64,000 nucleotides of DNA from an uncultured Methanosarcinales archaeon (GTDB lineage: Archaea > Nanobdellota > Nanobdellia > Woesearchaeales > JACPBV01): assembly GCA_964577685.1 (NCBI GenBank), contig CAZNZT010000003.1:11083-75082 (forward strand), written 5' to 3'. Below the pieces are notes generated by a model. The model was given only the letters and a program-made list of their open reading frames with translations. It did no database searches and was not told where the DNA came from. Position 1 is the stretch's first letter. The number at the start of each line of letters is the position of its first letter. The position numbers were made by a program, and so were the translations under genes. Shown here piece by piece: positions 1,530 to 41,950 of the stretch.

Positions 1530-3373
1530 TATAAATCTCCTCTAGATTTTATATAAAAAAACTCAATAAGCAATATTATTATGCCTATTACCAGTAATGT
1601 ATTATCCAAGTAAAAGGTCTCCGTATCCTTTCCCTTTTCAATTTGAATATTCTTTAGTTCACTCTCTATTTTTATATCTCCTTGGTTTACATTGCTTTCT
1701 TCCTCACTTAGCAGATTTACTGCAATCTTTTTGTGATTGAATTCATAGAAACCAACATTGTCCAGCAATAGCTTATCTGTTTTTATCATCCCTTCAGGTG
1801 TTCTAATATTCTGTTCATTTATGATGAGTGTTTTACCAGTTTTTTGGTTATATTCTTTTATGTCTTTTCTGTCTGTCAGGTAGCCTATTAGGTTGTACCA
1901 GAATATAGGGTAGAGCGGAGTAGAATAAAAGCTAGAGTATTTGTCAATTATTCCGTTATAGATTATTTTTCCTGTTCCTAATTTCATCTCTGTAAGCAAA
2001 GGAGAATTATCGCTTTCTGCACTTAGCATAGTAACTGTATTGTTCCATGCTTTTCCTTTTATATACTTGTTTATTGTAGCAAAACAAGGTTCTTCAGAAA
2101 ATGGGTCTCTTGGAAAGACACTTCCTATAAGGTCAACGCACATTGTGGTTGGCTTGTTTGATAGCTCTATTATGTTAAGGGGCAACATGCCTAGCCAATC
2201 TATCTGTGCAATATCTTCTTGAGCTACTATTATTAGTTTTCCCCCATGCTTTGCATATTTTTTTATATCCATCATATCAGTAGGTACAAAAAGCTTTTTT
2301 GTTATATCACTTATTATGATTATATCATGGTTGATATTATATGCATTTATAGCTGGGGGTTCTCTTATTTCTAAATCAACTTCGGGCATTGATTCTAGTG
2401 CTGCCCTTATTGGTGAACCATCCGGATAGTTCGTTATTAGGAGGATTTTAATTGTTTTCTTTGTAGGCGAGCTTATATAAGCTGTGTTGTCTAATTCTAA
2501 GTCATCTTTTGTATCTAAACGGATTTTGCTTAGTCTATTTGGTGTTTTGAATGTTATTTTTTCTTTGGAATCCTTTAGGATCTTGACCTTCCTGCTGGCT
2601 ATTTTTTTGTTATTTTGACTTAGTATCGCATTCACTTCTTTATCATTTTCTTCATAGTTTTTGATTTCTACTACCGTTTCATCTTTACTTATTATAAGGT
2701 TTGTAATGCCAATATTGTTTGCTTTTTCTCTTATTTTAATGAATTTCACAACATTTCCTTTTGCCTCAAGTGTTTTTTTTGCTGTTAATAAATCAGATCC
2801 TTCTGTTTGTATAAAATCACTTATTACGGTAACAACTCCTTTTTTGTTTTCAAGTAGGTCATTTGCTAGTAAGATAGCATCACCTAAATTGGTTGTTGTT
2901 GCTTTTGGTGTTAGTTTATTTATTATGCTGTTTGCTTCCCCACTTGAACCACTTTCCAGCACTACTAGGGGAACGTTTTCTGCTAGAATTATTGTGTTTC
3001 TTATGCCAAGATTATCTTTGGCTTTTTCTATTGCTTTTTGGAATCTTGTAGTTGAACCTTCCTTTGTTTGCATACTAGCACTTGCGTCTATGATAATAAT
3101 GCTGTTTTTTATCATTACTTTGTGGGGGATTTCTATATAGGGAGCGGCTACGGAGAAAGCTAGTACCACTATTGCAAAAAGTTGTATTATCAGAAGTAAG
3201 TTTCTCAGAAGTTTTTGTAGAAAGGATGCTTTTCTTGATTTTTGTTTTTCTTTTAGAATAAACATAAGAGATGGTACAATCTTTTCAAAGCTTTTAGGCC
3301 TTATTAGATATATCAATATGAATGGCACTAAAAAAAACAGTGCATATAGGCCAATAGGATTATTGAATGGCAT
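1529..3373 (-). CDS. BatA-like membrane-anchored VWA-domain protein
   Basis: N-terminus NPIGLYALFFLVPFILIYLIRPK resembles the BatA-type N-terminal anchor. MIDAS-like IIIIDASASMQ. C-terminal TM segment LLVIGIIILLIEFFYI. Confidence 0.75.
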   Translation of the reverse strand: MPFNNPIGLYALFFLVPFILIYLIRPKSFEKIVPSLMFILKEKQKSRKASFLQKLLRNLLLIIQLFAIVVLAFSVAAPYIEIPHKVMIKNSIIIIDASASMQTKEGSTTRFQKAIEKAKDNLGIRNTIILAENVPLVVLESGSSGEANSIINKLTPKATTTNLGDAILLANDLLENKKGVVTVISDFIQTEGSDLLTAKKTLEAKGNVVKFIKIREKANNIGITNLIISKDETVVEIKNYEENDKEVNAILSQNNKKIASRKVKILKDSKEKITFKTPNRLSKIRLDTKDDLELDNTAYISSPTKKTIKILLITNYPDGSPIRAALESMPEVDLEIREPPAINAYNINHDIIIISDITKKLFVPTDMMDIKKYAKHGGKLIIVAQEDIAQIDWLGMLPLNIIELSNKPTTMCVDLIGSVFPRDPFSEEPCFATINKYIKGKAWNNTVTMLSAESDNSPLLTEMKLGTGKIIYNGIIDKYSSFYSTPLYPIFWYNLIGYLTDRKDIKEYNQKTGKTLIINEQNIRTPEGMIKTDKLLLDNVGFYEFNHKKIAVNLLSEEESNVNQGDIKIESELKNIQIEKGKDTETFYLDNTLLVIGIIILLIEFFYIKSRGDL

Positions 3374-4007: not shown

Positions 4008-5882
4008 ATGAAGGAATTGATATTGCATGTGGATAATGTATCTTATGAGGTTAAATCAAAGACAAAGTTTTCAGGGTACGATAAAGATATAAAGAATAAG
4101 GATGGAATGGAAGAGGCTTTATTTGTAGCTATCTCTGTGGAGAAGAGAGATGAGAAGAACATAGGACAAGTGGTTAAGAAGGCAGTTAAGGACTTAAAGG
4201 ATGTTGCAGAGAAGGTGAAGACAAAGAACATTATGCTCTACCCATATGTACATCTCCTCTTTGGTTCAGAACCTGCTTCTCCTACCCAATGTATCAAGCT
4301 ATTGGACCTAATGGAAAGTGAATTAAGGAATAATGGGTTTAATGTTAAAAGGTCTCCATTTGGATTCTATAAAGCCTTTGAGTTGAAGGTAAAGGGACAT
4401 CCTTTGTCTGAGTTAAGTAGAGAGTTCGCTCCTGGTGATGAAACAGAGGAAGAAACTGAAGCAGTAAAAAAAGAGAGAAAATTGACTTCTTATTGGTATA
4501 TCCTGACTGAGGATGGTACCCTCCATGATGTTGGTAAGTTTGATTATAGCAAATACGGGAAGCTAAAGAAGTTTGCATTTTATGAAAAGGAAAAGTCAAG
4601 GCTTGTTAAAGAAGAACCACCACATGTTAGGCTAATGAAAAAGTTGGAGCTTGTGGATTACGAACCTGCTTCTGATGCCGGCAATCTTAGGTATTATCCA
4701 AAAGGAAGGCTGATAAAAAAATTGATTGAGGAATATGTAAGTAGGAGAGTTATAGAGTATGGTGGGGTTGAGGTAGAGACTCCTATAATGTACGATATGC
4801 AACATCCTACACTCTCAAAATATCTCCAAAGGTTTCCTGCTAGGCAGTATCAGATAGAATCAGATAAGAGAAGGTTTTTCTTGAGGTTTGCAGCATGCTT
4901 TGGCCAGTTTTTGATGGCACATGATGCTACTATTAGTTATAAAGACTTGCCACTTAAACTGTATGAGCTGACTAGGTACTCTTTTAGAAGAGAGCAATCT
5001 GGGGAATTAACTGGACTGAGGAGATTAAGGGCATTCACTATGCCAGATGTTCATGCAATAGTATCTGATTTAGACCAAGCTATGGATGAGTTTAAGGTAA
5101 GGTTTGATTTGTGTCTTGATGTTCTAAATAAGATAGGTATAAACCAAGAGGATTTAGAGATGGCTCTTAGGACAACAAAGGATTTTTTTAATAAGAACAA
5201 GGAGTTTATCATTAATCTAGTAAAAAAATTTGGCAAACCAATTTTATTGGAAATGTGGGATGAAAGGATATTTTATTTTATTTTGAAGTATGAGTTTAAT
5301 TTTGTTGATAATTTGGATAAGGCTTCTGCTTTGAGTACAGACCAGATTGATATTGAGAATGGAGAGAGGTATAATATAAGGTTTGTTGACAGAAATGGCA
5401 AGTCTAGACATCCTTTAATATTACATTGTAGCCCTTCTGGGGCTATTGAGAGGGTAATGTATGCATTGTTGGAGAAAGCAGAATTTGATAAGAAGGATGG
5501 GATGGTTCCTATGCTCCCACTATGGCTGAGCCCTACCCAGGTTAGGGTAATTCCAGTATCTGATGAATTCTTAGATTACGCCATGGAAATAACAGATAAC
5601 TTAAGAAAAAATAACATCAGGGCTGATATAGATGATAGAACATTACATGTTGGAAAGAAGATTAGGGAGGCTGAAGTTGAGTGGTGTTCTACAATCGTGG
5701 TTATAGGTGAGAAAGAAATAAAAAGTAAGAAGCTTCCTGTAAGGGTACGGGGAAAGAAAGAGCTTGTTGAGATGACAACTACAGAATTAATTGATTATAT
5801 AAAAAAGAAAACATGGGGAATGCCATTTCAGCAGTTGCCCTTACCGAAGAGGTTAAGCAAGAGACCTGTTTTTGTTGGTTAA
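4008..5882 (+). CDS. thrS: threonyl-tRNA synthetase, archaeal type with N-terminal editing domain
   Basis: 624 aa. Class II core (FRREQSGELTGLRRLRAFTMPDVH), C-terminal anticodon-binding domain (QVRVIPVSDEFLDYAMEITDNLR), and an archaeal-style N-terminal domain instead of the bacterial TGS/N2 layout. Confidence 0.9.
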   Translation: MKELILHVDNVSYEVKSKTKFSGYDKDIKNKDGMEEALFVAISVEKRDEKNIGQVVKKAVKDLKDVAEKVKTKNIMLYPYVHLLFGSEPASPTQCIKLLDLMESELRNNGFNVKRSPFGFYKAFELKVKGHPLSELSREFAPGDETEEETEAVKKERKLTSYWYILTEDGTLHDVGKFDYSKYGKLKKFAFYEKEKSRLVKEEPPHVRLMKKLELVDYEPASDAGNLRYYPKGRLIKKLIEEYVSRRVIEYGGVEVETPIMYDMQHPTLSKYLQRFPARQYQIESDKRRFFLRFAACFGQFLMAHDATISYKDLPLKLYELTRYSFRREQSGELTGLRRLRAFTMPDVHAIVSDLDQAMDEFKVRFDLCLDVLNKIGINQEDLEMALRTTKDFFNKNKEFIINLVKKFGKPILLEMWDERIFYFILKYEFNFVDNLDKASALSTDQIDIENGERYNIRFVDRNGKSRHPLILHCSPSGAIERVMYALLEKAEFDKKDGMVPMLPLWLSPTQVRVIPVSDEFLDYAMEITDNLRKNNIRADIDDRTLHVGKKIREAEVEWCSTIVVIGEKEIKSKKLPVRVRGKKELVEMTTTELIDYIKKKTWGMPFQQLPLPKRLSKRPVFVG

Positions 5883-7732
5883 TTTTTTTCTGTTTTCTTT
5901 AGTGCTTGTAACAATCCAACGACCTTTTCTTCTTCCCCTCTTCTGAATACATATACTCTACCTCTAGATTCAAAACCATAATCTTCAAGAGTTTTTATAA
6001 GACCATTTGGCTCTATGCCCTCTTTTATTTCATCTAAGAAACTATTCCATCTTCTTCTATTTTTAATTCCTAATCTTGGACCAATAGAATTGTAGGAGTC
6101 CCTTAGTGTTCTTAATCCCAACCCTTCCATTCTGGCTTTAAGTTCTTCATAGGAGCTTAGATAGAATCCTTCTTTATCCCTCCTAATTACTCCTGAGTTT
6201 ATTATTTCCCTTCTTCCTTCGGGGGTTAATATTCTGAGTTCTGCTCTGAGAAGTCTTTCTATTGTGCTTCTGTTTACTCTGTTATTGTATCCCCTTGCTG
6301 GATTAGTGCTAAGATATTCTCCTAATACTTTGGCTGCTTTCATTTCTCTTAGTTCGCCTATAGCTTGCTCTTGTAGTTGTCTGACCCTTTCCCTTGTTAG
6401 TCCGAGTCGTTTTCCTACCTCTTCAAGAGTATGTATATATCCGTCAGGTATTCCAAATCTCATCTTTATTATTATTCTCTCCCTTTCCGGTAGTTCACCT
6501 ATAAGCTTTCTTACCCACTCCGCTAGGTCCATTCTTTCTACTTCTTGAGATGGTGTTGTATCATATCTTGGAACAGAGCTTTTTATTGTTGGGCTGGCAT
6601 CCAGACTAGGTTTATACCCCATCATATGCAATAACGAGAGTTCCTCTTCTATCACTCTTTCTGGTTTGCCTGTTGCTTCTGCTAGTTCTTCTATAGATGG
6701 ATGTTTTCCGTTACCTGTTGGGTTTGCTCTTCTTTTGTGAAGATCCCTCGTTGATTTTATTTTATATTCTGGTATATATATTGGGTTTTGTGTTTTTTCT
6801 GCAGCTCTTGTTATTCTTTGTTTTATCCACGGGATGGCATATGTGGAAAATTTGCAACCAGCACCCGGCTCAAATCTTTCAGCAGCCATCATTAGTCCTA
6901 TGTTTCCTTCTCCTATAAGATCAAAAGAAGGTAAACCTGATTTATACTTTTTTGCGATATTTACCACTAATCTTAGATTATGGTTTACTAATGTTTGCAA
7001 GGCTCTGATATAGCTTTCTCTTGTCCTGTCAATCAATCTTAGGTATCTATTTAGCATTCTTTCTAATAGCTCATAATCGGCTTTTGGATTATACCGTTCT
7101 GTTGGTAGCCCTAGCAATAGAAGAGCGTTTCTGCCATTTGGTTTGTTTGATGCTCCATTATTTTGTTCTTGTATAATACTTTCAATCTCCTTAATATCTA
7201 TTATATCTAGACCAAGCTCTGAGATAAGTCTAGCACCATTTCTTATTCTTCTGGCAATCCTTCCAGCAATCTGTTCTTCCTTTTTGCTCCTGTATCCTGG
7301 GTTTTTTCTTGCATAGGAGGAATACCTTCTAAAGTCTTCTATATTCTTTCTTAGTAGTGCATCAATTGTTCTGCTATTTGCTTCATGTAAGCGTTTCCAT
7401 TTTCTTATGTCAAAATTCCTTACAACAGGATTCTTTTTAGACCTGTTTTTCTTGATAGGGTTTCTCTCTAAAGCTGTTACCCACACATATGGGATTCTAA
7501 GTAGCGCTAGTGCATAGGTTTCCCTTCTTCTTTTTATTCTTTCAGCAATAGCTCTTTCTTCTTCGGGGCTTAGTAGCGCGTATTTACTGATTTCTTGGAA
7601 ATACTTTTGTAGAAATGAGCTAGTATGCGTGGCTTTATCTCTCTCTTCGGCTGTAATTTTATCTGTGTTAGTTAAATTAGAGTCTTGTTCTATTGGTTCA
7701 GATATGAAGGATATTGTTTCAGCAGCCTCCAA
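5879..7732 (-). CDS. RpoD-like sigma-70 family protein with a ~150-aa C-terminal extension
   Basis: Region 1.2 (FLQKYFQEISKYALLSPEEERAIAERI). Regions 2.1-2.4 (NLRLVVNIAKKYKSGLPSFDLIGEGNIGLMMAAERFEPGAGCKFSTYAIPWIKQRITRAAE). Region 3 (SIEELAEATGKPERVIEE). Region 4 (ERERIIIKMRFGIPDGYIHTLEEVGKRLGLTRERVRQLQEQAIGELR). TTG start preceded by GGGTGGT. Confidence 0.85.
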   Translation of the reverse strand: MEAAETISFISEPIEQDSNLTNTDKITAEERDKATHTSSFLQKYFQEISKYALLSPEEERAIAERIKRRRETYALALLRIPYVWVTALERNPIKKNRSKKNPVVRNFDIRKWKRLHEANSRTIDALLRKNIEDFRRYSSYARKNPGYRSKKEEQIAGRIARRIRNGARLISELGLDIIDIKEIESIIQEQNNGASNKPNGRNALLLLGLPTERYNPKADYELLERMLNRYLRLIDRTRESYIRALQTLVNHNLRLVVNIAKKYKSGLPSFDLIGEGNIGLMMAAERFEPGAGCKFSTYAIPWIKQRITRAAEKTQNPIYIPEYKIKSTRDLHKRRANPTGNGKHPSIEELAEATGKPERVIEEELSLLHMMGYKPSLDASPTIKSSVPRYDTTPSQEVERMDLAEWVRKLIGELPERERIIIKMRFGIPDGYIHTLEEVGKRLGLTRERVRQLQEQAIGELREMKAAKVLGEYLSTNPARGYNNRVNRSTIERLLRAELRILTPEGRREIINSGVIRRDKEGFYLSSYEELKARMEGLGLRTLRDSYNSIGPRLGIKNRRRWNSFLDEIKEGIEPNGLIKTLEDYGFESRGRVYVFRRGEEEKVVGLLQALKKTEKN

Positions 7733-7822
7733 CTAATACCACCCTAGTCAATATAGTTGCTTCTTAATTAATAAATCTTACTAAAAAATTTTGTCTTTAA
7801 CTATATTCATCAAAGTTTATCT

Positions 7823-8095
7823 TTATTTATTTGTTAGAATTTCAGCAATTTTGTCTGCAACTTCTTTTTTTCCTACAAGGCAGCCATCATATTTTGCTTT
7901 TCCTTCAACAACAGCCTTTGCAAATTCATCGCAACCTGCAAAGCCACAAGCTCCACAATTTACTCCTGGGAGGACATCTCTGATTTTTTTTACTATCCCT
8001 TCTTCATCTGGCTTAAATTTTTTTGAGGCCCAGCTAAGGAAAGCACCAAATATAAAGCCTAACAGACCCAAAACAGCTATTGGTTCTATTATCAT
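7823..8095 (-). CDS. rnfB: RnfB, minimal form (membrane anchor plus N-terminal Fe-S domain only)
   Basis: 90 aa. N-terminal TM, then CGACGFAGCDEFAKAVVEGKAKYDGC, the RnfB N-terminal Cys cluster. No ferredoxin-type CxxCxxCxxxCP motifs. Last gene in rnfCDGEAB order. Confidence 0.7.
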   Translation of the reverse strand: MIIEPIAVLGLLGFIFGAFLSWASKKFKPDEEGIVKKIRDVLPGVNCGACGFAGCDEFAKAVVEGKAKYDGCLVGKKEVADKIAEILTNK

Positions 8096-8670
8096 CTTAC
8101 CATCCCTGAGAATGCTAAAAATGCCATTGAGAGTATAGATGCGACAATAAATGCTATAGGCAAGCCTTCAAATGCTTTTGGAACTTTTGAGATTTCTAGC
8201 CTTTCTCTGATTCCAGACATTAGTGCTAATGCCAGTGTAAACCCGATTCCTGCACTTACCCCAAAAACAACAGCACCTATGAAGCTATAGTTCTCTTGTA
8301 TATTGAGTAAGGCTACTCCAAGAACTGCACAGTTTGTTGTTATCAAGGGTAGGTAGATACCTAATGCCCTATATAGTAGTGGATTTGATTTTTTTAGGAA
8401 TAATTCAACAAATTGTACTAGCGTTGCTATAACTAAGATAAATACAATTATTTTTAGGTATTCTATTTTTAATGGGACCAAAATAAAGTGGTACAATATC
8501 CATGTTACAATAGATGCTAGCGTCATAACAAATGTTACTGCTAAGCTCATTCCTAGTGCAGATTTTGTTTTTTTGCTAACACCAAAGAATGGACACAACC
8601 CAAGAAATCTTGTTAATATAAAGTTATTTACTAATATTGCACCAATCATTATCGCAATCAAGTTTTCCAT
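8092..8670 (-). CDS. rnfA: Rnf complex subunit A
   Basis: 192 aa polytopic membrane protein with typical RnfA/NqrE-like sequence (NNFILTRFLGLCPFFGVS; LPLITTNCAVLGVAL). Start overlaps the rnfE end region. Confidence 0.9.
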   Translation of the reverse strand: MENLIAIMIGAILVNNFILTRFLGLCPFFGVSKKTKSALGMSLAVTFVMTLASIVTWILYHFILVPLKIEYLKIIVFILVIATLVQFVELFLKKSNPLLYRALGIYLPLITTNCAVLGVALLNIQENYSFIGAVVFGVSAGIGFTLALALMSGIRERLEISKVPKAFEGLPIAFIVASILSMAFLAFSGMVR

Positions 8671-8671
8671 T

Positions 8672-9319
8672 TTAGCTTCCTGTTGTTTTTTCTTCTATTT
8701 TTTTATCTTGGTTTTTCTTAGATATTTGCGAATAAGCCCTAAAAAATGCTAAGAGCAACCCCATTATAAGTAATGCACCAGGAGCAAGGATAAATATCAT
8801 TGCAGGATTAATTTTTATGTTTATTATGCTAACACCAAATAGCTTTAATGAACCAGTGCCGAGAAGCTCTCTAAAAAAGCTGATTAATAGTAATGCTAGG
8901 GTAAATCCCACTCCTATGCCTAACCCATCTAATATAGACTCTGTAACATTGTTTTTGGAAGCAAATGCCTCTGCCCTACCCAGGATTATACAATTGACTA
9001 CAATCAATGGAACATAAATTCCTAGAGCTTTATTTAGTGTTGGGAAGAATGCCTGCATTATTAGACTTGCCATTGTGACAAATGAGGCGATAATTACAAT
9101 GAATGTTGGGATTCTTATTTTGTCAGAGATTTTTTTTCTTATCAGGCTTATTGTTGTATTTGAAAACACTAGGACAAAGATTACCGCTGTACCCATTCCT
9201 ATTGCATTATCTAGGCTTGTAGAAACAGCTAAGGCAGGACATAAGCCTAACACCATGCAGAATATTGGGTTCTGTTTGAATAGGCCTTTCCAAAATTCAA
9301 GGAGTTTGATTTGTTTCAT
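8672..9319 (-). CDS. rnfE: Rnf complex subunit E
   Basis: 215 aa. KGLFKQNPIFCMVLGLCPALAVSTS and VPLIVVNCIILGRAEAFA are typical of RnfE/NqrD. Confidence 0.9.
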   Translation of the reverse strand: MKQIKLLEFWKGLFKQNPIFCMVLGLCPALAVSTSLDNAIGMGTAVIFVLVFSNTTISLIRKKISDKIRIPTFIVIIASFVTMASLIMQAFFPTLNKALGIYVPLIVVNCIILGRAEAFASKNNVTESILDGLGIGVGFTLALLLISFFRELLGTGSLKLFGVSIINIKINPAMIFILAPGALLIMGLLLAFFRAYSQISKKNQDKKIEEKTTGS

Positions 9320-9890
9320 TTTTCACATTTTTCATATATTCATTTTTTACGTAAACCTTTGCCATTACTTTTTTTGATGTTCTGTCTTTTATATTGAATC
9401 TTTTTATACTTTCTCTTATGGCGTTGGTTATGGAACTTGAACTTATTGTTGCTCCTGTTATAGCATCTATTTCCCCACCATCTTTTTTTATTTTTATTTG
9501 ATTCTCTGTTTTTCCAATAAATTGATTGAGGAAATCTTTTTCTTCAATTTTCGCTCCTAGCCCAGGCGTTTCTGCTTGACTGATGATTTTTATTCCGGTG
9601 ATTTTATTGTTTCTGTCAATCCCAACTAACGCATATATTGTTGATGAATAACCCTTAGCTGATACTTTCAGCACTCTTCCAACAAGATTCTTGCCTTTAT
9701 AGGCTTCATAGTAGTTCTGGTTTTCTTTAAAGGAATCTGCATCAATGATTTCCCTCAATGATGATGAAATTATGTTTTCTCTTTGTTTTATTATTATTGG
9801 ATAGGTATAATAGTTAGTTAAAGCAAGAACAGCTCCAGCTATTAATGTTGTAATCATTAAGCTTAGTCCCATTTTTATTGTTTCTTTCAT
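9297..9890 (-). CDS. rnfG: Rnf complex subunit G (FMN-binding)
   Basis: 197 aa. N-terminal anchor. ETPGLGAKI, and the covalent-FMN site motif DAITGATISSSSI. Confidence 0.85.
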   Translation of the reverse strand: MKETIKMGLSLMITTLIAGAVLALTNYYTYPIIIKQRENIISSSLREIIDADSFKENQNYYEAYKGKNLVGRVLKVSAKGYSSTIYALVGIDRNNKITGIKIISQAETPGLGAKIEEKDFLNQFIGKTENQIKIKKDGGEIDAITGATISSSSITNAIRESIKRFNIKDRTSKKVMAKVYVKNEYMKNVKNETNQTP

Positions 9891-10843
9891 TCTTTTCTTA
9901 TTGTTTCTTTTTTTTCTTTCTTTCTGTAACCAAATGGTTTTTGTTTTGTGAATCTATCAATTAGTGGGGTAGCACCATTCATCAACAATATTGAAAACAT
10001 TACTCCTTCTGGGTAGCTGGAAAATAGTCTCAGTATTATCGTTAGGATACCACATCCAAATCCGAATATTAGTTTACCTTTTTTTGTTATTGGTGTTGTA
10101 ACATAGTCTGTTGCCATAAAGAATGCTCCAAGCAATAAACCACCTGCGAAGAGATGGAAGATAGGGTCTTGCTTAAAGATAAACGAAAATATAAATACTG
10201 TGCCTATGTAGGATATAGGGATTCTCCAGTCAATAATCTTCGTTAAGAGTAGAAATATGGCTCCAATCAGTATTGCTATGGCGGATGTTTCACCAATACA
10301 GCCAGCAGTGTTCCCTAGTATCAGGTTATAATAGCTTGTTTTTATTCCCTCCAGCTTAAGCATGCCTAGTGGAGTTGCACTAGTTGTGCCATCAATATTT
10401 AGCCATGCTGTCATTAAGGCCGGCCATGAAGCAACTAGGAATGCTCTCCCCGCTAAAGCTGGATTGAAGATATTATGTCCTAAGCCTCCGAAAGTATGTT
10501 TTGCTATGGCTATCGCAAATATAGAGCCTAGGGCAGCAATCCACCATGGTACGCTTGGAGATAATATCAGACCAAGGAGTAAACCAGTAACCAATGCAGA
10601 GCCATCTTTTATGTTTTCTGGTTGTTTTCTTATCTTTAAAATAACAAACTCTGTTAATAGGGCTGCTACTACGCTAGTGCATATTACCTTAAGTGCTTTT
10701 GTTTTGAAGAAATATATGCCTGCAATTGTAGCTGGTAATAGCCCTATTATTACATAGTACATTATCTTTCTGCTAGTTGCTTTATCCTTGATGTGTGGGC
10801 TTTGGGTTGTTATCAGTCTTTTTTCTTTTATTGTTTCTTCCAT
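9887..10843 (-). CDS. rnfD: Rnf complex subunit D
   Basis: 318 aa polytopic protein. NPALAGRAFL, the flavinylation-type motif DGTTSATPLG, and YPEGVMFSILLMN are typical of RnfD/NqrB. Confidence 0.9.
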   Translation of the reverse strand: MEETIKEKRLITTQSPHIKDKATSRKIMYYVIIGLLPATIAGIYFFKTKALKVICTSVVAALLTEFVILKIRKQPENIKDGSALVTGLLLGLILSPSVPWWIAALGSIFAIAIAKHTFGGLGHNIFNPALAGRAFLVASWPALMTAWLNIDGTTSATPLGMLKLEGIKTSYYNLILGNTAGCIGETSAIAILIGAIFLLLTKIIDWRIPISYIGTVFIFSFIFKQDPIFHLFAGGLLLGAFFMATDYVTTPITKKGKLIFGFGCGILTIILRLFSSYPEGVMFSILLMNGATPLIDRFTKQKPFGYRKKEKKETIRKE

Positions 10844-10867
10844 CTTGGTTTCTTATTTTTTGTTTGT

Positions 10868-12196
10868 TTATTTCGTGCTTCGTTCTTTTTTCTTTCTTGT
10901 TATCTCTTCCTTGGCTTTTCTGATTTTCTCTACAAGTGGAATCTTTGATGGACAAACATAAGCACAACATCCACATTCATAACAATCTAGAGCAAAGTAT
11001 TCTTCTGCTTTCTCATAGTTCTCATTGTCACTATATTTTGCAATTATTGTTGGCATTAGCAACATAGGACAAACATCAATACACCTCCCACATCTGATGC
11101 ATTCTGTTTCCTTTTCCTCAGGTTCTACTATGGCTTGGACTAGGATACCAGAGCTCCCCTTTATTATTGGAACATTGTTCGTTTTTTGTGCAATCCCCAT
11201 CATGGGACCCCCGAATATTATTTTCCCTATTGCGTTTGTGTATCCTTTGCAATATTCAATTATATCTTTAGTGGGGGTACCTATCTTTACCAATAGGTTT
11301 TTTTGTTCCTTAACAGCACCTGTTACAGTTATTACCCTTTCAATTAATGGTTTTCCCTCATAAACAGCGTCATAAATTGCCTTTGCTGTTTGTACATTCT
11401 GTACAACAACACCTACATCCATCGGCAATCCTCCGTTACTTGGTACTACTCTTTTAGTTATACTATAAATCAGATTTTTTTCTGCACCTTGCGGATACCT
11501 TGTCTTTAACCTTACTACTTTTATCTTATCTGTTAATCCCATATCTTGTAGTTTTGATTCTAGGATTGCTATCGCATTTTCTTTGTTGTCTTCAATTCCT
11601 ATATAACAATATTCTGGTTCAAGAATTTTGGTTATTATTTGAAGCCCTTTTATTATCTTCTCTGGGTGTTCTAACATTACCCTATGGTCGCATGTGAGGT
11701 AAGGTTCACATTCTGCTCCATTTAGTATTACAGTATCTATTTTCTTTTCCTTTGGAGGAGTTAATTTAACATGGGTGGGAAAAGCAGCACCTCCCAGACC
11801 TACAATTCCTGCCTCCCTTATTATCCTCCTAAGTTCTTCTTTGGATAGCGTTTCAATGTTCTCCCTTTTCTTAGTAGAGTCATCTTTTTCCATCAGCTTG
11901 TCGGATTCAATAAGTATTGCCTCACACTCTTTTAAGGTAGGATGGGGTGCTTTTACAATACCTATTACAATTCCAGATACAGGGGAATGGATTGGTGCTG
12001 AGACAAAATCTGTGCTATCTGCAATCTTTTGTCCTACTTTTACTTTATCTCCTTCCTTTACTATCGGAGAACAAGGGGCACCAATGTGTTGTCTTAATGG
12101 CAAGATTACTCTTTTTGGTACCGGCATCTCTTCTGTTCTCTTCTTTCTTGTTAGTTTATTTTCCTTAAGATGTAGTCCTCCTATGAACTTTGGCAT
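10868..12196 (-). CDS. rnfC: Rnf complex subunit C
   Basis: 442 aa. NADH/FMN-type region GIVGLGGAAFPTHVKL. Two ferredoxin motifs, CIRCGRCIDVCP and CYECGCCAYVCP. Confidence 0.9.
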   Translation of the reverse strand: MPKFIGGLHLKENKLTRKKRTEEMPVPKRVILPLRQHIGAPCSPIVKEGDKVKVGQKIADSTDFVSAPIHSPVSGIVIGIVKAPHPTLKECEAILIESDKLMEKDDSTKKRENIETLSKEELRRIIREAGIVGLGGAAFPTHVKLTPPKEKKIDTVILNGAECEPYLTCDHRVMLEHPEKIIKGLQIITKILEPEYCYIGIEDNKENAIAILESKLQDMGLTDKIKVVRLKTRYPQGAEKNLIYSITKRVVPSNGGLPMDVGVVVQNVQTAKAIYDAVYEGKPLIERVITVTGAVKEQKNLLVKIGTPTKDIIEYCKGYTNAIGKIIFGGPMMGIAQKTNNVPIIKGSSGILVQAIVEPEEKETECIRCGRCIDVCPMLLMPTIIAKYSDNENYEKAEEYFALDCYECGCCAYVCPSKIPLVEKIRKAKEEITRKKKERSTK

Positions 12197-12237: not shown

Positions 12238-13107
12238 TTAAATTATAAGAAATAAGATATTTCCAAATAAGATTGTGACTATAAACGCTATAAAGAAGCT
12301 TGGAACAAACGGGATTCCCTCTTTTATTGTTACTTTTTTTATTTTCTTCTTTTTGTATAGTTTGATAAGCATTCTGATTTGGCTTTTTTCAATACCAAGG
12401 TCTTTTGGACCACAGATGTATTTTCCTTTGTATCTGATTTCCTTAGCAATCCAGTCTCCTTCGGTTAGTTTGTGAGGGGTTACTTCTTTTATCATGCATA
12501 CCTTTTCAATTGCCTTTACAATAGCCCAAAGATAGAATGTTGCTATTGTGGTTATTAATAATACAATCATGATTATTTTGTATATTGTTTCTTTTATTAT
12601 AATGCCTAAGATGATTGTGGTTACTACAAGGGTTATAGCCAGCATCCTCATTCTGGTGGCTTTTTTGCTATGTAGGGTTCTTCTGAATTCCTTCCAAACT
12701 TTCTTTTTATTTTTAAAAATCAAGGTTAGACTCCAGGTTAGGCCATAAATGGAGCCTAAAAGCAACATATTTGTGAAGAAGCTAATCAACATTGGGAAAT
12801 CTTTTTGTTTTATGTTAAGCCCTATTAGTGCTCCTAGCCCCATTATTACTTTACTATCACCTCCTCCCCATTGACCTGCATAAAACATTACTAATGCAAA
12901 GATGAGGAATACAAGGAAACCGATTATGCTGTTTATTATAAACCAATAGTTTGAATAAATAAAGGAAAATAGAAGATTTAAGCCAAGTCCACTACATATT
13001 AGACCATAACTAAGCCAATCTGGGACCTCTCTTGTTTTTAGGTCTGTTATTGTGGCAAAAAACAAGCCTATGAGTGCTATTGAGGATGTTATCGTGTTGT
13101 GAATCAT
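12238..13107 (-). CDS. A24-family prepilin/preflagellin (archaellin) signal peptidase with an inserted soluble domain
   Basis: Polytopic. Catalytic Asp motifs ITDLKTREVPD and GGGDSKV. C-terminal GIPFVPSFFIA. Confidence 0.8.
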   Translation of the reverse strand: MIHNTITSSIALIGLFFATITDLKTREVPDWLSYGLICSGLGLNLLFSFIYSNYWFIINSIIGFLVFLIFALVMFYAGQWGGGDSKVIMGLGALIGLNIKQKDFPMLISFFTNMLLLGSIYGLTWSLTLIFKNKKKVWKEFRRTLHSKKATRMRMLAITLVVTTIILGIIIKETIYKIIMIVLLITTIATFYLWAIVKAIEKVCMIKEVTPHKLTEGDWIAKEIRYKGKYICGPKDLGIEKSQIRMLIKLYKKKKIKKVTIKEGIPFVPSFFIAFIVTILFGNILFLII

Positions 13108-13174
13108 TACAGAGTAGCTAAAAATAACAAAGTTTATAAATTTAACTTCTATACTATTAGCGTGGGGGTGTCTT

Positions 13175-13903
13175 ATGTTAGGTATGTTTAAGGATAGAAT
13201 GTCTAAGCATCTTAGTGATGGAAATCCAAGACATATAGCTCTTACTACGAGAGGAAAACATGCATATGCAAAAAAGAATAACCTCTCTATAGAGGAAGCA
13301 TATAGTCTAAGTTATCTGGCAATTATGAGTACGATTGCTTCTACCATTAAACTAAAAATTCCAATGTTGACATTTCATCTATTGTCTACCAAAGTAAAAG
13401 AGCTTGATAGTTTTCCTGTTGTGATAGATTCCCTCACAAATTTTTTCAACAACCTTTCTGAGAAAGATATTATCTCTAATAATAGAATAAGGATTTCAAT
13501 CTTGGGTAAGTGGTATGATATGCCCGGTAGATTGGTGGAGGCTATAAAGAAGATTATAGAGCAAACGGAGGATTATGCCTCCTATTTTGTGAATTTCTGT
13601 ATTAACTATAACGGACAAGAGGAAATAGTTGATGCTTTTAGGTTGATAGCTAGACAGGTCGTAGCAAAAAAAATAGACCCTGAGTCTATAGATATAAAGA
13701 CTATAAAAGAGAATACTTATTCCTCCTATTTCCCTCCTCCAGACTTGATTGTAGTCAATTATTATAGAAAAACATCTGATATTTTGTTATGGGACTCTCC
13801 AAATGCAAGTTTCTATTTTACTGATAGGTTGTGGCCAGACTTTAGTAAGGATGATCTGCTTGCTGCTATAAAGTTCTTTAGAGAGAGTTTGAATCAAAAA
13901 TAA
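13175..13903 (+). CDS. cis-prenyltransferase (UppS)-fold protein lacking the canonical catalytic residues
   Basis: UPPS-like blocks: PRHIALTTRGKHAYAKK (versus HVAIIMDGNGRWAKK), FCINYNGQEEIVDAFRLIA, PDLIVVNYYRKTSDILLWDSPNASFYFTDRLWPDF. The catalytic Asp and the RxxGE/RFG motifs are substituted or absent. Confidence 0.65.
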   Translation: MLGMFKDRMSKHLSDGNPRHIALTTRGKHAYAKKNNLSIEEAYSLSYLAIMSTIASTIKLKIPMLTFHLLSTKVKELDSFPVVIDSLTNFFNNLSEKDIISNNRIRISILGKWYDMPGRLVEAIKKIIEQTEDYASYFVNFCINYNGQEEIVDAFRLIARQVVAKKIDPESIDIKTIKENTYSSYFPPPDLIVVNYYRKTSDILLWDSPNASFYFTDRLWPDFSKDDLLAAIKFFRESLNQK

Positions 13904-14046
13904 TAAATTTTTTAAACAAACTCTAATTTCTTCTTTTTGCCTATGAGAAATGAGCCTTTAGGGGCAATGAGGCATTCAGTTCTAATTGCCTCTTGTAGAT
14001 TTTGAATTTTAGGTTTTATATGAAAGCATGCTAAGGGTGAATAAAA

Positions 14047-14598
14047 ATGACTGAAGAAAAGGTTGATGAGGTATATGAAGCAGTAGAGGTTGCAAGAGCA
14101 ACTGGAAAAATAAAGAAAGGAGCAAACGAGGTTACTAAGGCTGTGGAAAGAGGAGAAGCTAGATTGGTTATTATAGCAAAGGATGTAAGTCCTCCAGAGA
14201 TTATTATGCATTTGCCTTTGCTTTGTAAGGAAAAGGGTATTCCTTGTGTGGAGGTTCCATCTAAGGAGGAGCTTGGTACTGTGGCTGGCATTGATAAAGC
14301 AGCTTCCTCCGTAGCAATAGTCCAAGAAGGTGAGGCAAAGGATTTGATAAGGCGAATAAAGGAGAAGAGAGGGGCAAAAGAGGAAGAAAAGGGAGAAGAA
14401 GCAAAGGAAGATAAGGAGGAAAAGAAAGAAGTAAAAGAGGAAGAAAAAGGAGAAGAGGCAAAGGAAGGTAAGGAGGAAAAGAAAGAAGTAAAAGAGGAGA
14501 AAAATAAAAAAGACAGCAAAGAAAAGAAAGGAGAAAAAGAAACGGAGGAAGACAAGAAAGACAAAGATATAAAAAAGGAAGATAAAGATAAAAAGTAG
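14047..14598 (+). CDS. rpl7ae: ribosomal protein L7Ae with a long K/E-rich C-terminal tail
   Basis: Core [57 protein letters not shown], then a ~80-aa K/E tail containing a 19-aa tandem repeat. Confidence 0.9.
14377..14499 (+). repeat. 57-nt tandem repeat (2 full copies plus the start of a third) inside the L7Ae tail
   Basis: 14377-14433 and 14434-14490 differ at a few positions only. They encode [11 protein letters not shown](D/G)KEEKKEV twice. Confidence 0.9.
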
Positions 14599-14617
14599 CG
14601 TGTGGATATGCGTAAAA

Positions 14618-14920
14618 ATGCCTAAAAAAGTTGTTAGGAGGGATTCAGGTAAGCCTAGGGGAAAGAGAGAAGAAGCTAGAAAAGGAGGAGTACATTTTAC
14701 AAAGGCTATTCCGGCTAGGGTTGAGGAAATCATAGGAAGGACAGGAACAAGAGGAGAAGCTATACAGGTTAGGTGTAAGATATTAGAAGGGAGGGACAAG
14801 AATAAGGTTATGAGAAGAAATGTGAAAGGCCCTGTTCAGGTTGGAGATATTCTTATGCTAAGAGAAACCGAAATTGAAGCAAGACCACTTGAAAAAGCTG
14901 GAAGGGGATCTGGTGCTTAA
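14618..14920 (+). CDS. rps28e: ribosomal protein S28e with a basic N-terminal extension
   Basis: [59 protein letters not shown] is a canonical S28e core. I take the ATG at 14618 (MPKKVV...) rather than the track start at 14600. Confidence 0.85.
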
Positions 14921-14922
14921 AA

Positions 14923-15093
14923 ATGCCAAAGTGTAGTTTTTGTGGAGAAGTTATTAAGCAAGGCACAGGCAAGATGTATGTGCAGAAGGATGCTAAAATA
15001 TTATACTTTTGCTCATCAAAATGTGAAAAGAATATGTTAAAGCTTAAGAAAAAACCTTATAATGTTAAGTGGACTAAAAGATATAAAAAGTGA
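14923..15093 (+). CDS. rpl24e: ribosomal protein L24e
   Basis: 56 aa, below the track cutoff. Manual translation: [56 protein letters not shown]. Zinc-ribbon CxxC...CxxxC and the conserved position after rps28e. Confidence 0.85.
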
Positions 15094-15095
15094 AA

Positions 15096-15608
15096 ATGGC
15101 AGTAGAACAATCCCTTGTCTTAATAAAACCTGATGGCTTGGTTAGGAGCCTTACAGGTGATATTCTATCCAAATTATCAGAGACAGGGCTAAAGATAGTT
15201 GGGGCTAAGGTTGTTCAGGTTACTAGGGAGCTTGCAGAGGAACACTATTGCCACCTAAAGGAAGAAAAATTTTTTGATGAATTAATAAAATATATAATGG
15301 GCGAATACCATACCAAAAGAGTTCTTGCTTTGGTTTACCATGGAGAAAATGCTATCAAAAAGATAAGGAAAGTTGTTGGTTCTACAAATCCAGAAAAAGC
15401 AGAACCTAGCACAATAAGGGGAAAGTATGGAAGGATAACAACACACGGCGTTTTTGAGAATGTTGTACATGCTTCAGAGAATGCTAAAGAAGCTGAAAGG
15501 GAAATAAAGCTTTGGTTTAGACCAGATGAACTGGTTTATACCATTTATCCGACTGAGTTGAGAAAAGTTACGCTTAATAAGCTATTCTGGAAAGAAGAGA
15601 AGAAATAG
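15096..15608 (+). CDS. ndk: nucleoside diphosphate kinase
   Basis: EQSLVLIKPDG..., GSTNPEKAEPSTIRGKYG, and active-site NVVHASE. ATG at 15096 preferred over the GTG at 15090. Confidence 0.9.
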   Translation: MAVEQSLVLIKPDGLVRSLTGDILSKLSETGLKIVGAKVVQVTRELAEEHYCHLKEEKFFDELIKYIMGEYHTKRVLALVYHGENAIKKIRKVVGSTNPEKAEPSTIRGKYGRITTHGVFENVVHASENAKEAEREIKLWFRPDELVYTIYPTELRKVTLNKLFWKEEKK

Positions 15609-15616
15609 GTGATACT

Positions 15617-17797
15617 ATGGGAGAACGAATGGTAGACAAAGTTACAAAGATTATGATGGATCCATCAGCTATTAGAAATATTGCTACATGTGCTCATATA
15701 GACCATGGAAAAACAACATTTTCTGATAATCTTTTAGCTGGTGCAGGAATGATGTCAAAAGAGGATGCAGGGAAGGCTTTAAAACTTGATTTTCACGAAG
15801 ATGAACAACAGAGGGGGATAACTATAGATACAGGTGCTGTTTCTATGGTTCATGGGTTAGGAGGTAAAGAGTATCTTATAAATCTATTGGATACACCTGG
15901 TCATATTGATTTCAGTGGTGATGTAACTAGGGCTATGAGGGCAGTAGATGGAGCTATTGTTCTAGTTTGTGCTGTTGAGGGAATTATGCCTCAGACAGAA
16001 ACCGTTTTAAGACAAGCATTAAAAGAGAGGGTAAAGCCCGTTTTGTATATAAATAAAGTTGATAGGTTGATAAAAGAATTGAAATTAACACCAGAACAGA
16101 TGCAAGAGAGATTTATAAAGATAATTTCTAATGTTAATAAGCTTATTAGAGAGATTGCAGAGGAAGAATATAAGGAAAAGTGGCAAGTAAATGTCCAAGA
16201 TGGTTCAGTGGCTTTTGGCTCAGCTTTTCATAATTGGGGTTTATCTCTTCCATATATGCAAAAGAAAGGAATTACTTTCAAGGACATAATAGAGGCTTAC
16301 TCTAGTGATGACCCTCAGAAGGTTAAAGAGCTTGCTGAAAAAGCTCCATTGCACGAGGTTGTTCTAAATATGGTTATTAGACATCTACCTAATCCTGTTG
16401 ATGCCCAGAAGTATAGAATACCCAAGATATGGCATGGGGAGCTAGAAAGTGAGGAGGGCAAAGCACTTTTGGATTGTGCTGCTGGTGGACCATTATTTTT
16501 TGTAATAACTAAGATTGTGATAGATCCACAAGCTGGAGAGATTTCATGTGGTAGGTTATTTTCTGGTACTATGAAAAAGGGTATAGAGGTTTATCTTAAC
16601 AGGATGAAGCAAAAGAGTAGAATTCAGCAGGTCTTTATTTATAATGGGGCAAAAAGAGAGATTGTGGATGAAGTTCCTGCTGGAAATATAATTGGTATAG
16701 CAGGGGTAAAGAGTTATGCTGGCGAGACAATCACTCTTAAAGAGACAGAACCCTTTGAGAAGATCACTCATTTGTTTGAGCCAGTAATAACCAAAGCTAT
16801 AGAACCAGTAAAACCAAGCGATTTGCCTAAGTTAATAGATGTTTTAAATGTTGTTGCAAAAGAAGACCCTACTGTCCAAATAGAGATAAATGAGGAAACT
16901 GGGGAGAACCTTATGCATGGTATGGGTGAGCTACACCTTGAGATTATTGAAAACAGAATAAGAGATGAGAAAGGATTGCAGGTTAAGACATCTAATCCTA
17001 TTGTTGTTTATCGAGAAACAGTAACGAAGAAGGGGCCTACTGTTGAAGGGAAGACTCCAAATAAGCATAATAAGTTCTATTTTCATGTAGAACCATTAGA
17101 GCCTGAGATTTATAATGCCATTAAGGAGGGGAAGATACCTGAAGGAAGAGTGAAAAAGAAGAATGTTGTGGTAAGGGATGCATTAGTGGAAGCAGGTATG
17201 GATTCTAAGATAGCAACAAAGGTTAAGGATGTTTTCAAGGGCAATATCCTTATAGACCAAACTAGAGGGATAGTTCATATAGGAGAAGTTATGGAGATGA
17301 TACTTGATATGTTTGAAGATGTCATGAATGCAGGACCTTTGGCTAGGGAGCCATGTTTAAGGGTTAAGGTTATTATAGATGATATGAAGTTACATGAGGA
17401 TGCTATCCATAGGGGACCAGCCCAGGTATACCCTGCTGTAAGAGATAGCATAAGGGGTTCTATGATGCAGGCAAGACCTGTTATATTTGAGCCATATCAG
17501 GTGTTACAAATTGAGGCTCCTAATGAGTATATGGGTGATTTATCTAAGCTAATCGGAAACAAGAGAGGACAACTTTTAGATATGAAACAAGAAGGCAGTC
17601 TAGTTGTTATAAGGGCAAAGATGCCTGTAGCAGAACTTCTTGGTTGGAGTTCTGATTTGAGGTCTGCAACAGGTGGAAGAGGTTCATCAAGCCTTGTTGA
17701 TCAGATGTTTGAGAAGGTGCCTGAGGAATTACAACAGAAAGTCATTAAACAAATAAAGGATAGAAAAGGATTAACGGATGCTATGGTTGGTGCTTAG
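15617..17797 (+). CDS. fusA: archaeal elongation factor 2 (aEF-2)
   Basis: G motifs AHIDHGKTT, DTPGHIDF, NKVDR. Diphthamide-site motif HEDAIHRGPAQ, typical of archaeal/eukaryotic EF-2. Confidence 0.95.
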   Translation: MGERMVDKVTKIMMDPSAIRNIATCAHIDHGKTTFSDNLLAGAGMMSKEDAGKALKLDFHEDEQQRGITIDTGAVSMVHGLGGKEYLINLLDTPGHIDFSGDVTRAMRAVDGAIVLVCAVEGIMPQTETVLRQALKERVKPVLYINKVDRLIKELKLTPEQMQERFIKIISNVNKLIREIAEEEYKEKWQVNVQDGSVAFGSAFHNWGLSLPYMQKKGITFKDIIEAYSSDDPQKVKELAEKAPLHEVVLNMVIRHLPNPVDAQKYRIPKIWHGELESEEGKALLDCAAGGPLFFVITKIVIDPQAGEISCGRLFSGTMKKGIEVYLNRMKQKSRIQQVFIYNGAKREIVDEVPAGNIIGIAGVKSYAGETITLKETEPFEKITHLFEPVITKAIEPVKPSDLPKLIDVLNVVAKEDPTVQIEINEETGENLMHGMGELHLEIIENRIRDEKGLQVKTSNPIVVYRETVTKKGPTVEGKTPNKHNKFYFHVEPLEPEIYNAIKEGKIPEGRVKKKNVVVRDALVEAGMDSKIATKVKDVFKGNILIDQTRGIVHIGEVMEMILDMFEDVMNAGPLAREPCLRVKVIIDDMKLHEDAIHRGPAQVYPAVRDSIRGSMMQARPVIFEPYQVLQIEAPNEYMGDLSKLIGNKRGQLLDMKQEGSLVVIRAKMPVAELLGWSSDLRSATGGRGSSSLVDQMFEKVPEELQQKVIKQIKDRKGLTDAMVGA

Positions 17798-21167: not shown

Positions 21168-21674
21168 CTATCCACTTACTATTATCTTACCTTTCATGTA
21201 TAACCTGTCCTTGTAGAAAACATCATAGTAGTAATGTGTTCCTGTTTTATTAAACGTATGGTTAAAGCTTTGTCCGTATTCTAATACAGGACTCCTAAGT
21301 TTTTCAGAATAAGAATAAAGCATGTGCTTTATGGGACCTGTTTCTTTTGGCTTGTCTTTGTGTTTCCATATAACTTTATCTCCTTTTTTTATTTTTAGTT
21401 GTTGCGGGTTTAACCTTATGTTCTCTATTGTTACTATCCATTCTTTTTTTGTTTTTTGTATTTTCTTACTTTCATTCTTTTCTTTTACTGTTTTTGTAGT
21501 TTCCTTTTTTTCAATTTGCTCTATTGGTGGTGGCATTTCTTCTTCTGCTTTTGTTATATTTTTGTGTTCTGTGGTGGGTTCTGTTATTATTGCATGGGTA
21601 ACAGGTTCTTTAGAACAACCACTAATTATAGTTAGAGTTATAAACAAGATTAGGGCAAAGTAATATTCTTTCAT
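21168..21674 (-). CDS. lipobox-bearing secreted cupredoxin-fold-like protein without Cu ligands
   Basis: Signal plus IISGC lipobox. C-terminal domain LKIKKGDKVIWKHKD...GTHYYYDVFYKDRLYMKGKIIV follows the plastocyanin-like pattern, but Asp replaces the Cys ligand. Confidence 0.55.
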   Translation of the reverse strand: MKEYYFALILFITLTIISGCSKEPVTHAIITEPTTEHKNITKAEEEMPPPIEQIEKKETTKTVKEKNESKKIQKTKKEWIVTIENIRLNPQQLKIKKGDKVIWKHKDKPKETGPIKHMLYSYSEKLRSPVLEYGQSFNHTFNKTGTHYYYDVFYKDRLYMKGKIIVSG

Positions 21675-31186: not shown

Positions 31187-31209
31187 TAAATGCTTAATCC
31201 ACTAATCTT

Positions 31210-31282: not shown

Positions 31283-31288
31283 TCTTAT

Positions 31289-39069: not shown

Positions 39070-39082
39070 TTATATACCAAAT

Positions 39083-39673: not shown

Positions 39674-39674
39674 A

Positions 39675-40079: not shown

Positions 40080-40111
40080 TGGGAATGAAAGTTAAAAAGA
40101 CCACTTTATAA

Positions 40112-40635: not shown

Positions 40636-40639
40636 ATAT

Positions 40640-41949: not shown

Positions 41950-41950
41950 G

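Follow-up and report, generated by a model that had tools for sequence, protein, structure and literature searches.

A 64,000-nucleotide stretch of DNA from an uncultured archaeon (positions 11,083 to 75,082 of contig CAZNZT010000003.1, assembly GCA_964577685.1; the whole stretch is called the window below) carries, on its minus strand at 5879..7732, a genuine sigma-70 family gene of bacterial ancestry that is long resident in a Woesearchaeota (DPANN) chromosome. Sigma factors define bacterial transcription initiation, and archaea use TBP, TFB and TFE together with an RNA polymerase (RNAP) II-like enzyme. The residues that the protein has kept suggest that it may have been domesticated as a sequence-specific DNA-binding regulator, which would dock on a coiled-coil partner and target bacterial-derived energy-metabolism genes. 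We place this account first, tentatively, with a chance of being right that we put a little below even.

An earlier note on this DNA had described a bacterial-type sigma-70 gene embedded in an archaeal chromosome, which the archaeal contig, the native composition of the gene and its junctions in other assemblies now support. Such genes, which the note could not say were already on record for the lineage, had been described by Castelle et al. 2021 (Front Microbiol, PMC8204110), who found them to be particularly prevalent in Woesearchaeota, ruled out mis-binning, detected no anti-sigma factors and left the controlling mechanism unclear. The phenomenon itself, published in 2021 and left unexplained, is not new, and we found no later papers that take the matter further; what is new here is an unusually decorated, nearly orphan sigma that offers a defined candidate for experiments. 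Like the DPANN sigma-70 genes of that study (fam00359, PMC8204110), it lies on a Woesearchaeota contig with archaeal genes and has no anti-sigma gene nearby. It appears to differ from them in having only one relative above generic sigma similarity and a C-terminus of ~140 amino acids (aa) that this relative lacks.

Family assignment and architecture

Pfam, NCBIfam, PDB sequence and Foldseek searches agreed that the gene belongs to the sigma-70 family. The open reading frame (ORF) check bore out the frame, strand, length and TTG start given for it earlier. The gene, the parts of its product and the spacer before it are as follows, with profile scores in bits and model quality as the predicted local distance difference test (pLDDT).

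5879..7732, minus strand: sigma-70 family gene, 617 aa, TTG start
7733..7822, minus strand: spacer between rnfB and the sigma gene, 90 bp
7625..7732, minus strand: N-terminal tail, aa 1-36; acidic (9 D/E against 3 K/R), pLDDT 32-37, predicted disordered, not a region 1.1 domain
7529..7612, minus strand: region 1.2, aa 41-68; Sigma70_r1_2 PF00140, 31.4 bits against a cut-off of 22; pLDDT ~90
7013..7528, minus strand: aa ~69-240, the non-conserved region that separates 1.2 from 2.1; its one homologue is the corresponding part of the relative P0241
6791..6991, minus strand: sigma domain 2 (regions 2.1-2.4), aa 248-314; Sigma70_r2 PF04542, 53.2 bits against 24; pLDDT 91-96
6623..6775, minus strand: sigma domain 3, aa ~320-370; Sigma70_r3 PF04539, 21.4 bits against 25.3, below threshold; divergent
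6344..6502, minus strand: sigma domain 4 (regions 4.1-4.2), aa 411-463; Sigma70_r4 PF04545, 55.9 bits against 24.1; pLDDT 79-95
5882..6301, minus strand: orphan C-terminal extension, aa 478-617, ~140 aa, after a complete region 4.2

A search with the Sigma70_r1_2, r2, r3 and r4 profiles, which the earlier note had proposed, returned r1_2, r2 and r4 above their cut-offs. The note had called the sigma 'full-length', with regions 1.2, 2.1-2.4, 3 and 4.2 in order. This stands for regions 1.2, 2 and 4, but region 3 is sub-threshold, region 1.1 is absent and 43 of 121 conserved columns are changed. Region 3 could be aligned to Thermus SigA without large gaps and was modelled at pLDDT 70-89. The Pfam search of the protein gave no Sigma70_r1_1 (PF03979) match, and only 36-40 residues, disordered, precede region 1.2. 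With 108.7 bits, the protein cleared the cut-off (42.9) of TIGR02937, the model for the whole sigma-70 superfamily; it passed neither the RpoD equivalog models (NF004208, 184.8 bits against 555; TIGR02393, 162.3 against 354) nor those of RpoS (TIGR02394, 178.7 against 378.7; NF004207, 174.8 against 394).

The fold was compared using an AlphaFold model built on a 49-sequence alignment, the single-sequence model being unusable (mean pLDDT 38). Foldseek against the PDB returned sigma70, sigmaA or sigmaS chains of holoenzyme or initiation complexes for all of the top 50 matches, with a best E of 2e-14 and 440-520 aligned columns. The global TM-score was low (0.3-0.4), as the free model places its domains differently from the holoenzyme. 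The architecture resembles that of a primary sigma, with region 1.2 followed by a non-conserved insert and then by sigma2, sigma3 and sigma4; there is no region 1.1, and the ~140 aa at the C-terminus are an orphan domain. Bacterial RpoD/SigA and RpoS, which are its best PDB sequence and fold matches, share the order 1.2, insert, 2.1-2.4, 3 and 4.1-4.2, a core identity of 38-46% and the motifs NLRLV, DLIxEGNIGL, KFSTYA and TRERVRQ. Unlike them, the protein is without region 1.1 and scores one third to half of the equivalog cut-offs, and, unlike its best bacterial matches, it has no dnaG-rpoD context and is encoded in an archaeal genome.

At the C-terminus, where about 150 aa with no recognised motif had been described, we found ~140-150 aa with no match in Pfam, NCBIfam or PHROGs. 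Against PDB sequences the best match (E = 0.11) faintly resembled the beginning of an S1 domain and is not significant, and no internal repeat was found in the extension. Structure prediction of this part, also suggested earlier, gave a mixed alpha/beta model (helix-helix-hairpin-helices-hairpin-helix) at pLDDT 55-71. From the order of its secondary-structure elements at this pLDDT, we would guess that the extension could be winged-helix-like. Among the matches listed from the exhaustive search described below, nearly all best-scoring stretches stop by query residue ~480, with exceptions that reach 504, 514 and 566.

The top NCBIfam match of the protein was MzaA (NF041931), the sigma-like component of the MZA anti-virus defence system, at 200.8 bits over aa 20-477 and running through the insert between regions 1.2 and 2; MzaA (PDLC02203, 125 bits) was also the only PADLOC match (four proteins scanned). 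An MzaA-like role is nevertheless very improbable. The score compares with a cut-off of 800, profile positions 309-717 of 726 are matched with the ~300-aa N-terminal part left unmatched, and the RpoD and RpoS models score nearly equal (185 and 179 bits). For the relative P0241, RpoS and RpoD outrank MzaA. Furthermore, no mzaB-E-type domains occur among the annotated ORFs of the window, and 30 kb separate the sigma gene from the defence locus that the window does contain, which is of the type I CRISPR-Cas kind. The defence reading was rejected on score and context.

The TTG at 7732 is the only plausible start of the gene, because the earliest in-frame ATG lies at about residue 225. A Shine-Dalgarno-like GGGTGGT, read from the sequence, stands 5 nt upstream of the TTG (7738-7744). 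The spacer further holds a T6 run at 7783-7788 and an AT-rich, TATA-like TTTATTAATTAA at 7764-7775, ~38 nt before the start. These motifs would fit an archaeal promoter specific to the sigma gene; they are weak evidence, since such motifs are frequent in AT-rich spacers. At its other end, the stop codon of the gene shares 4 bp, TTAA (5879-5882), with the stop codon of thrS, and this overlap and the 90-bp gap to rnfB, both described earlier, are correct in the sequence.

Relatives of the protein and residues kept and lost

Word-index homology search revealed only bacterial sigmas, at 28-44% identity, and matches covering 70% of the query either were housekeeping sigmas of dnaG-rpoD operons or lay in bacterial surroundings of another kind. 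An exhaustive phmmer search of 1.84 billion representatives yielded a single outlier, P0241 (461 aa, 265 bits), all other matches scoring at most 175 bits. P0241 aligns to sigma aa 34-466 in one stretch at 41% identity, with 44% over region 1.2 and the non-conserved insert, and it terminates where the sigma core and canonical sigmas end, without the C-terminal extension. Its gene is encoded on a 3.8-kb contig (L011, 1-3847; 34% guanine plus cytosine, GC), the ENA accession of which is numerically near those of two contigs discussed below, L001 and L009. On the same strand it is flanked by the C-terminus of an AMP-forming acyl/acetyl-CoA synthetase (acs) and by a fused gamma-alpha pyruvate:ferredoxin oxidoreductase (POR). 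Both sigma copies are therefore co-directional among genes of ferredoxin/acetyl-CoA metabolism, rnf in the window and acs and POR in L011. Further scans added nothing to this pair. Among 185,579 GTDB species genomes, the representatives of which do not include the genome of the source organism, four bacterial loci with generic sigmas only were found; JGI metagenomes, scanned with a family-specific N-terminal alignment, gave region 1.2 matches only; and IMG/VR gave one generic phage sigma and no further family member.

Over 233 core columns, the sigma and P0241 are 42% identical to each other and both are 42% identical to bacterial sigmas, which average 68% among themselves. In a neighbour-joining tree the two form their own long branch. 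Both proteins evolve much faster than bacterial primary sigmas. Because the pair branches alone on a long branch, no donor lineage can be named, and the named top matches are scattered (Nitrospirota/Thermodesulfovibrio, Babeliales, Deltaproteobacteria, Pirellulales). Sigma-70 genes are known outside bacterial chromosomes, as the nucleus-encoded plastid sigmas and the phage sigmas, which act on the plastid PEP enzyme or on the host RNAP. We know of no bacterial-type RNAP for Woesearchaeota. Phage sigmas match our protein in the conserved core only (38-40% identity) and are no closer than bacterial ones. An origin from a phage or mobile element was rejected: we saw no integrase and no phage-like neighbours, and the sole tRNA gene of the window (31209-31284) is not near the sigma gene.

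To describe what has been retained, we used the 121 alignment columns in which conservation among 47 bacterial primary-like sigmas reaches 85% or more. Of these, the sigma protein retains 78 and P0241 retains 73. Retained in both are NLRL, DLIxEGNxGL, KFSTYA, WIKQ, RFG, TLEExG and TRExxRQ; in the sigma itself, NLRLV, DLIGEGNIGL, KFSTYA and WIKQ of domain 2 and HTLEEVG and TRERVRQ of domain 4 are intact. NLRL belongs to region 2.1, and DLIxEGNxGL is region 2.2, the surface that binds the beta' clamp helices. KFSTYA and WIKQ make up region 2.3/2.4, for -10 recognition and melting, and RFG, TLEExG and TRExxRQ belong to region 4.1/4.2, for flap binding and -35 recognition.

Positions that are invariant in primary sigmas (the WW dyad, RIPVH and the acidic motif of the sigma finger) were not all kept. 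Unlike in bacterial primary sigmas, the equivalent of E. coli W433, the first Trp of the WW dyad, is Pro in the sigma (aa 301) and Phe in P0241; Pro at this position is found in SigB/F/G-type sigmas. Of the two extended -10 positions, that of H455 is Tyr in both proteins (aa 323 of the sigma), and that of E458 is Lys in the sigma and Asp in P0241. In the RIPVH motif of primary sigmas, Arg is replaced by Tyr at aa 319 of the sigma. The acidic/aromatic sigma-finger motif is gone in both, DF having become SS at aa 385-386 of the sigma, and one Asp in region 1.2 is changed in both. The pattern suggests that housekeeping constraint has been released and that selection may persist on the partner-binding and DNA-reading surfaces.

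The same comparison bears on a relic reading, in which the gene would be a neutral or decaying remnant of horizontal transfer, an intact ORF without current function; we regard this as unlikely. It would agree with the near-singleton status of the protein, for which 1.84 billion representatives yielded one relative, 41% identical, and the GTDB genomes generic bacterial sigmas only, with the long branch (core identity 0.42, against 0.68 among bacterial sigmas), with the loss of 43 of 121 conserved positions, and with the truncation of the adjoining rnfB (see below), which suggests a rearranged region. Nevertheless, a stop-free ORF of 1,854 nt at 37% GC is unlikely to survive neutrally, and the residues kept cluster in known functional motifs in both diverged copies. 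Sequence has also been gained, in the form of a 140-aa extension that is predicted to be structured, and the gene is fully ameliorated, which argues that it is old.

Chromosomal setting and integrity of the assembly

The neighbours of the sigma gene are the following.

4008..5882, plus strand: thrS, with the archaea-specific editing domain PF08915 (tRNA-Thr_ED), then PF00587 and PF03129, contiguous; convergent with the sigma gene
7823..8095, minus strand: rnfB, 90 aa; PF04060; N-terminal membrane helix plus Fe-S domain
8092..12196, minus strand: rnfA, rnfE, rnfG, rnfD and rnfC, co-directional with the sigma gene; rnfB completes the set to rnfCDGEAB
12238..17797, entered without strand: archaeal backbone of A24 prepilin peptidase (pepA24), UPP synthase (UPPS), L7Ae, S28e, NDK and EF-2

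The contig is from Woesearchaeota (DPANN). EF-2 (15617-17797) shares 75-83% identity with proteins that carry the names Candidatus Woesearchaeota or Nanoarchaeota, and the window also encodes a family B DNA polymerase, L7Ae, S28e, TrmB, prefoldin, FtsY, SRP54, TYW3 and ZPR1. The informational neighbours had been called archaeal in the earlier note, and we could confirm this for thrS with its tRNA-Thr_ED domain, EF-2, the polymerase (PolB), TrmB, prefoldin, FtsY, SRP54, TYW3, L7Ae and S28e. Bacterial ribosomal proteins and RNAP, which would have marked the contig as bacterial, were not found within the 64-kb window, where no annotated ORF is a bacterial RNAP gene. Contigs of three relatives (L008-L010, with EF-2 79-83% identical) likewise cluster pepA24, UPP synthase, L7Ae, S28e, NDK and EF-2, and two relative contigs have archaeal RNAP subunits near EF-2. 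Beside pepA24, where the window has rnf, the relatives carry HIT-family genes (L009, L010) or an unannotated gene (L008); the rnf-sigma block is therefore specific to the source lineage.

The composition of the sigma gene does not set it apart. Its GC content (36.9%) and GC at third codon positions (26.1%) are mid-range among the other 32 genes, and its synonymous-codon log-likelihood is -0.945, neighbouring genes ranging from -0.86 to -1.06. It is therefore neither a recent arrival nor a compositionally foreign fragment.

We then compared the window with other assemblies that reproduce parts of it. Contig L001 (ENA ERZ27248458, k141_829945), which comes from the same population, encodes an identical sigma protein and matches window 7956..5286 at 99.93% identity, spanning the Fe-S-domain end of rnfB, the spacer, the sigma gene and the last 198 codons of thrS. 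It departs from the window path inside thrS at 5286 (L001 2671), where it enters leuB and a leu/ilv cluster through a fused Iso_dh/thrS-C-terminal ORF; no repeat is shared at this breakpoint. In the window, thrS is uninterrupted (624 aa) with its three domains in order across 5286, which is why we read L001 as chimeric or rearranged. An exact look-up of this thrS product returned no record, probably because the gene had been called from a different start. L001 continues to an archaeal class I CCA-adding enzyme, so that the sigma gene is linked to archaeal genes under either join. Upstream, L017 (ENA) matches window 14118-8024, L018 (Logan SRR7051285) matches 13120-10246 and L019 (JGI 3300021468) matches 13054-10247, all at 99.98-100% identity, and together they reproduce UPPS/pepA24/rnf, including the pepA24-rnfC junction. 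The ERZ27248458 assembly breaks inside rnfB, L017 ending at 8024 and L001 starting at 7956. The 67 bp in between (7957-8023) are bridged by the window contig alone among the assemblies read. Just downstream of the break lies an inverted repeat with an 11-bp stem (7916-7943), and the break may reflect strains that differ at the rnfB/sigma boundary.

The earlier note had raised the possibility of a chimeric junction between thrS and rnfB, of which we saw no sign. L001 reproduces the arrangement of the rnfB 3' end, the sigma gene and the thrS 3' end, but within thrS it parts from the window at 5286, and 7957-8023 rest on the window contig only. These two points, and the bacterial type of both rnf and sigma, would fit an assembly or binning artefact in which a bacterial fragment (sigma, with or without rnf) had been mis-joined into an archaeal contig. 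We give this explanation very little credence. Composition and codon use of the sigma gene are indistinguishable from those of the archaeal genes, L001 joins the rnfB Fe-S fragment, the sigma gene, the thrS 3' end and archaeal genes, thrS of the window runs uninterrupted across 5286, and three more assemblies, from different sources, have pepA24 and rnfC joined in exactly the same way. In addition, both rnfCDGEAB (PMC8421398) and sigma-70 genes, for which mis-binning was excluded (PMC8204110), are documented in Woesearchaeota.

The sigma gene lies directly downstream of rnfCDGEAB, an operon that Huang et al. 2021 (PMC8421398) reported from four genomes of Woesearchaeota subgroup J and inferred to have come from bacteria. 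The leucine/isoleucine biosynthesis genes on L001 would fit the metabolically richer subgroup J. Of RnfB profiles with lengths of 190-265, the rnfB of the window matches just positions 5-93; the half with two [4Fe-4S] ferredoxin clusters is missing, and no CxxCxxCxxxC motif was found in the window outside RnfC. The truncated RnfB therefore makes the region just upstream of the sigma gene look rearranged. Either this Rnf uses another electron-input module, or the 3' end of the operon was lost when the sigma gene arrived there. We also observed two cupredoxin-like genes (plastocyanin/azurin family; 21168-21674 and 23406-24041) in an organism that is otherwise predicted to live by anaerobic fermentation.

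Several other features of the window were recorded. Upstream of thrS, a gene at 1529-3373 encodes a 614-aa BatA/VWA/DUF7408/DUF7406 protein, aerotolerance-operon-like and of bacterial-type architecture. At 31988-36175 a predicted surface protein of 1,395 aa has lamin-tail, Big_9, cadherin-like and PKD domains, and it is followed by a 473-aa CARDB/MG2-like protein (36316-37737). A low-GC island (38269-53487; 23-30% GC, against ~35% elsewhere) holds the type I CRISPR-Cas locus, with cas6, cas7, cas3 (HD plus helicase), cas4 and cas1, as well as two genes combining a helix-turn-helix with a nucleotidyltransferase, a WYL-domain gene and an AAA_14/DUF4143 ATPase. Its CRISPR array (51663-53487) comprises 28 repeats with the core ATAGAACTATAGTAGGATTGAAAT and a period of ~66-67 bp. 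Finally, two adjoining genes of the D-Ala-D-Ala ligase family (ATP-grasp) at 60900-62936 are neighboured by an Orn/DAP/Arg decarboxylase, a radical SAM gene resembling lysine-2,3-aminomutase and a 441-aa ORF without annotation, a region that may be another bacterial-type module.

Possible roles and their meaning

The earlier note had offered a host-directed factor, a repurposed DNA binder and a regulator of rnf as functional ideas; among these we rank a repurposed DNA binder or regulator first. Because no bacterial core RNAP is expected in the lineage, the sigma would no longer be the promoter-specificity subunit of a bacterial enzyme. DNA could still be read by the intact sigma4 helix-turn-helix (TRERVRQ) together with the partly intact -10-reading surface of sigma2. 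The strongly kept region 2.2 surface (DLIxEGNxGL) would probably dock on a coiled-coil partner, for which the archaeal RNAP clamp coiled-coil, the structural counterpart of the bacterial beta' clamp helices, is the obvious candidate. Likely targets would be bacterial-derived energy-metabolism genes such as rnf. Bacterial-type promoters as targets were rejected for lack of enrichment: in the part of the window from 1 to 20 kb, sigma70-type promoter-like sites were not enriched (64 found, 68 +/- 8.8 expected), nor was TTGACA (30 found, 38.6 expected).

Several observations weigh against domestication as a regulator. The conservation of region 2.2 is also what would be expected of a sigma that still binds a bacterial beta', and our search for bacterial RNAP covered the 64-kb window. 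The link to energy metabolism comes from two loci, one of them (L011) of a taxonomy that is not established. Relaxed selection would likewise be compatible with the fast evolution and with the loss of 43 of the 121 conserved positions, among them the W433 equivalent, the extended -10 residues and the acidic sigma-finger motif. The acidic 36-aa N-terminal tail could act as an autoinhibitor in the manner of region 1.1, which weakens the idea that the free protein binds DNA.

Could the protein instead be a working sigma for a bacterial-type RNAP, encoded elsewhere in the genome or in a bacterial partner to which it would be delivered as a host-directed effector? In both family members the core-binding region 2.2 has been kept, as have the surface of region 4.1/4.2 and the helix that recognises -35, and the best structural matches are sigma chains within holoenzymes. 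We consider this distinctly unlikely, as the 64-kb window has no bacterial RNAP gene, relatives carry an archaeal RNAP operon, and sigma70-type promoters are not enriched. Several otherwise invariant primary-sigma positions have changed, with Pro in place of W433, Tyr in place of H455 and Lys in place of E458, and the sigma-finger DF is lost. In addition, the protein has no obvious hydrophobic N-terminal signal sequence (judged by eye, not by a predictor), no secretion genes adjoin it, and known DPANN hosts are archaea.

A bolder variant would be hybrid bacterial/archaeal initiation or activation. Here region 2.2 would sit on the archaeal RNAP clamp coiled-coil, at the TFE/Spt5 site, sigma4 and sigma2 would read DNA, the C-terminal domain would add a contact, and bacterial-derived operons, rnfCDGEAB for one, would be switched on. 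We regard it as a long shot. Some of the probability stays with none of the readings weighed here.

Domestication as a DNA-binding regulator remains the account that we rank first. An intact, ameliorated sigma with core-binding and promoter-reading motifs in an archaeon implies that it has found a new partner, that it serves a bacterial-type polymerase or a bacterial partner, or that it has persisted for long without a function. The first two, if true, would change views on gene expression in DPANN archaea and on the control of the many bacterial systems that they have absorbed. The locus is a well-anchored test case for these questions, with a bacterial-derived rnf adjoining, one diverged paralogue or orthologue to guide mutagenesis, and an added domain that is specific to the lineage.

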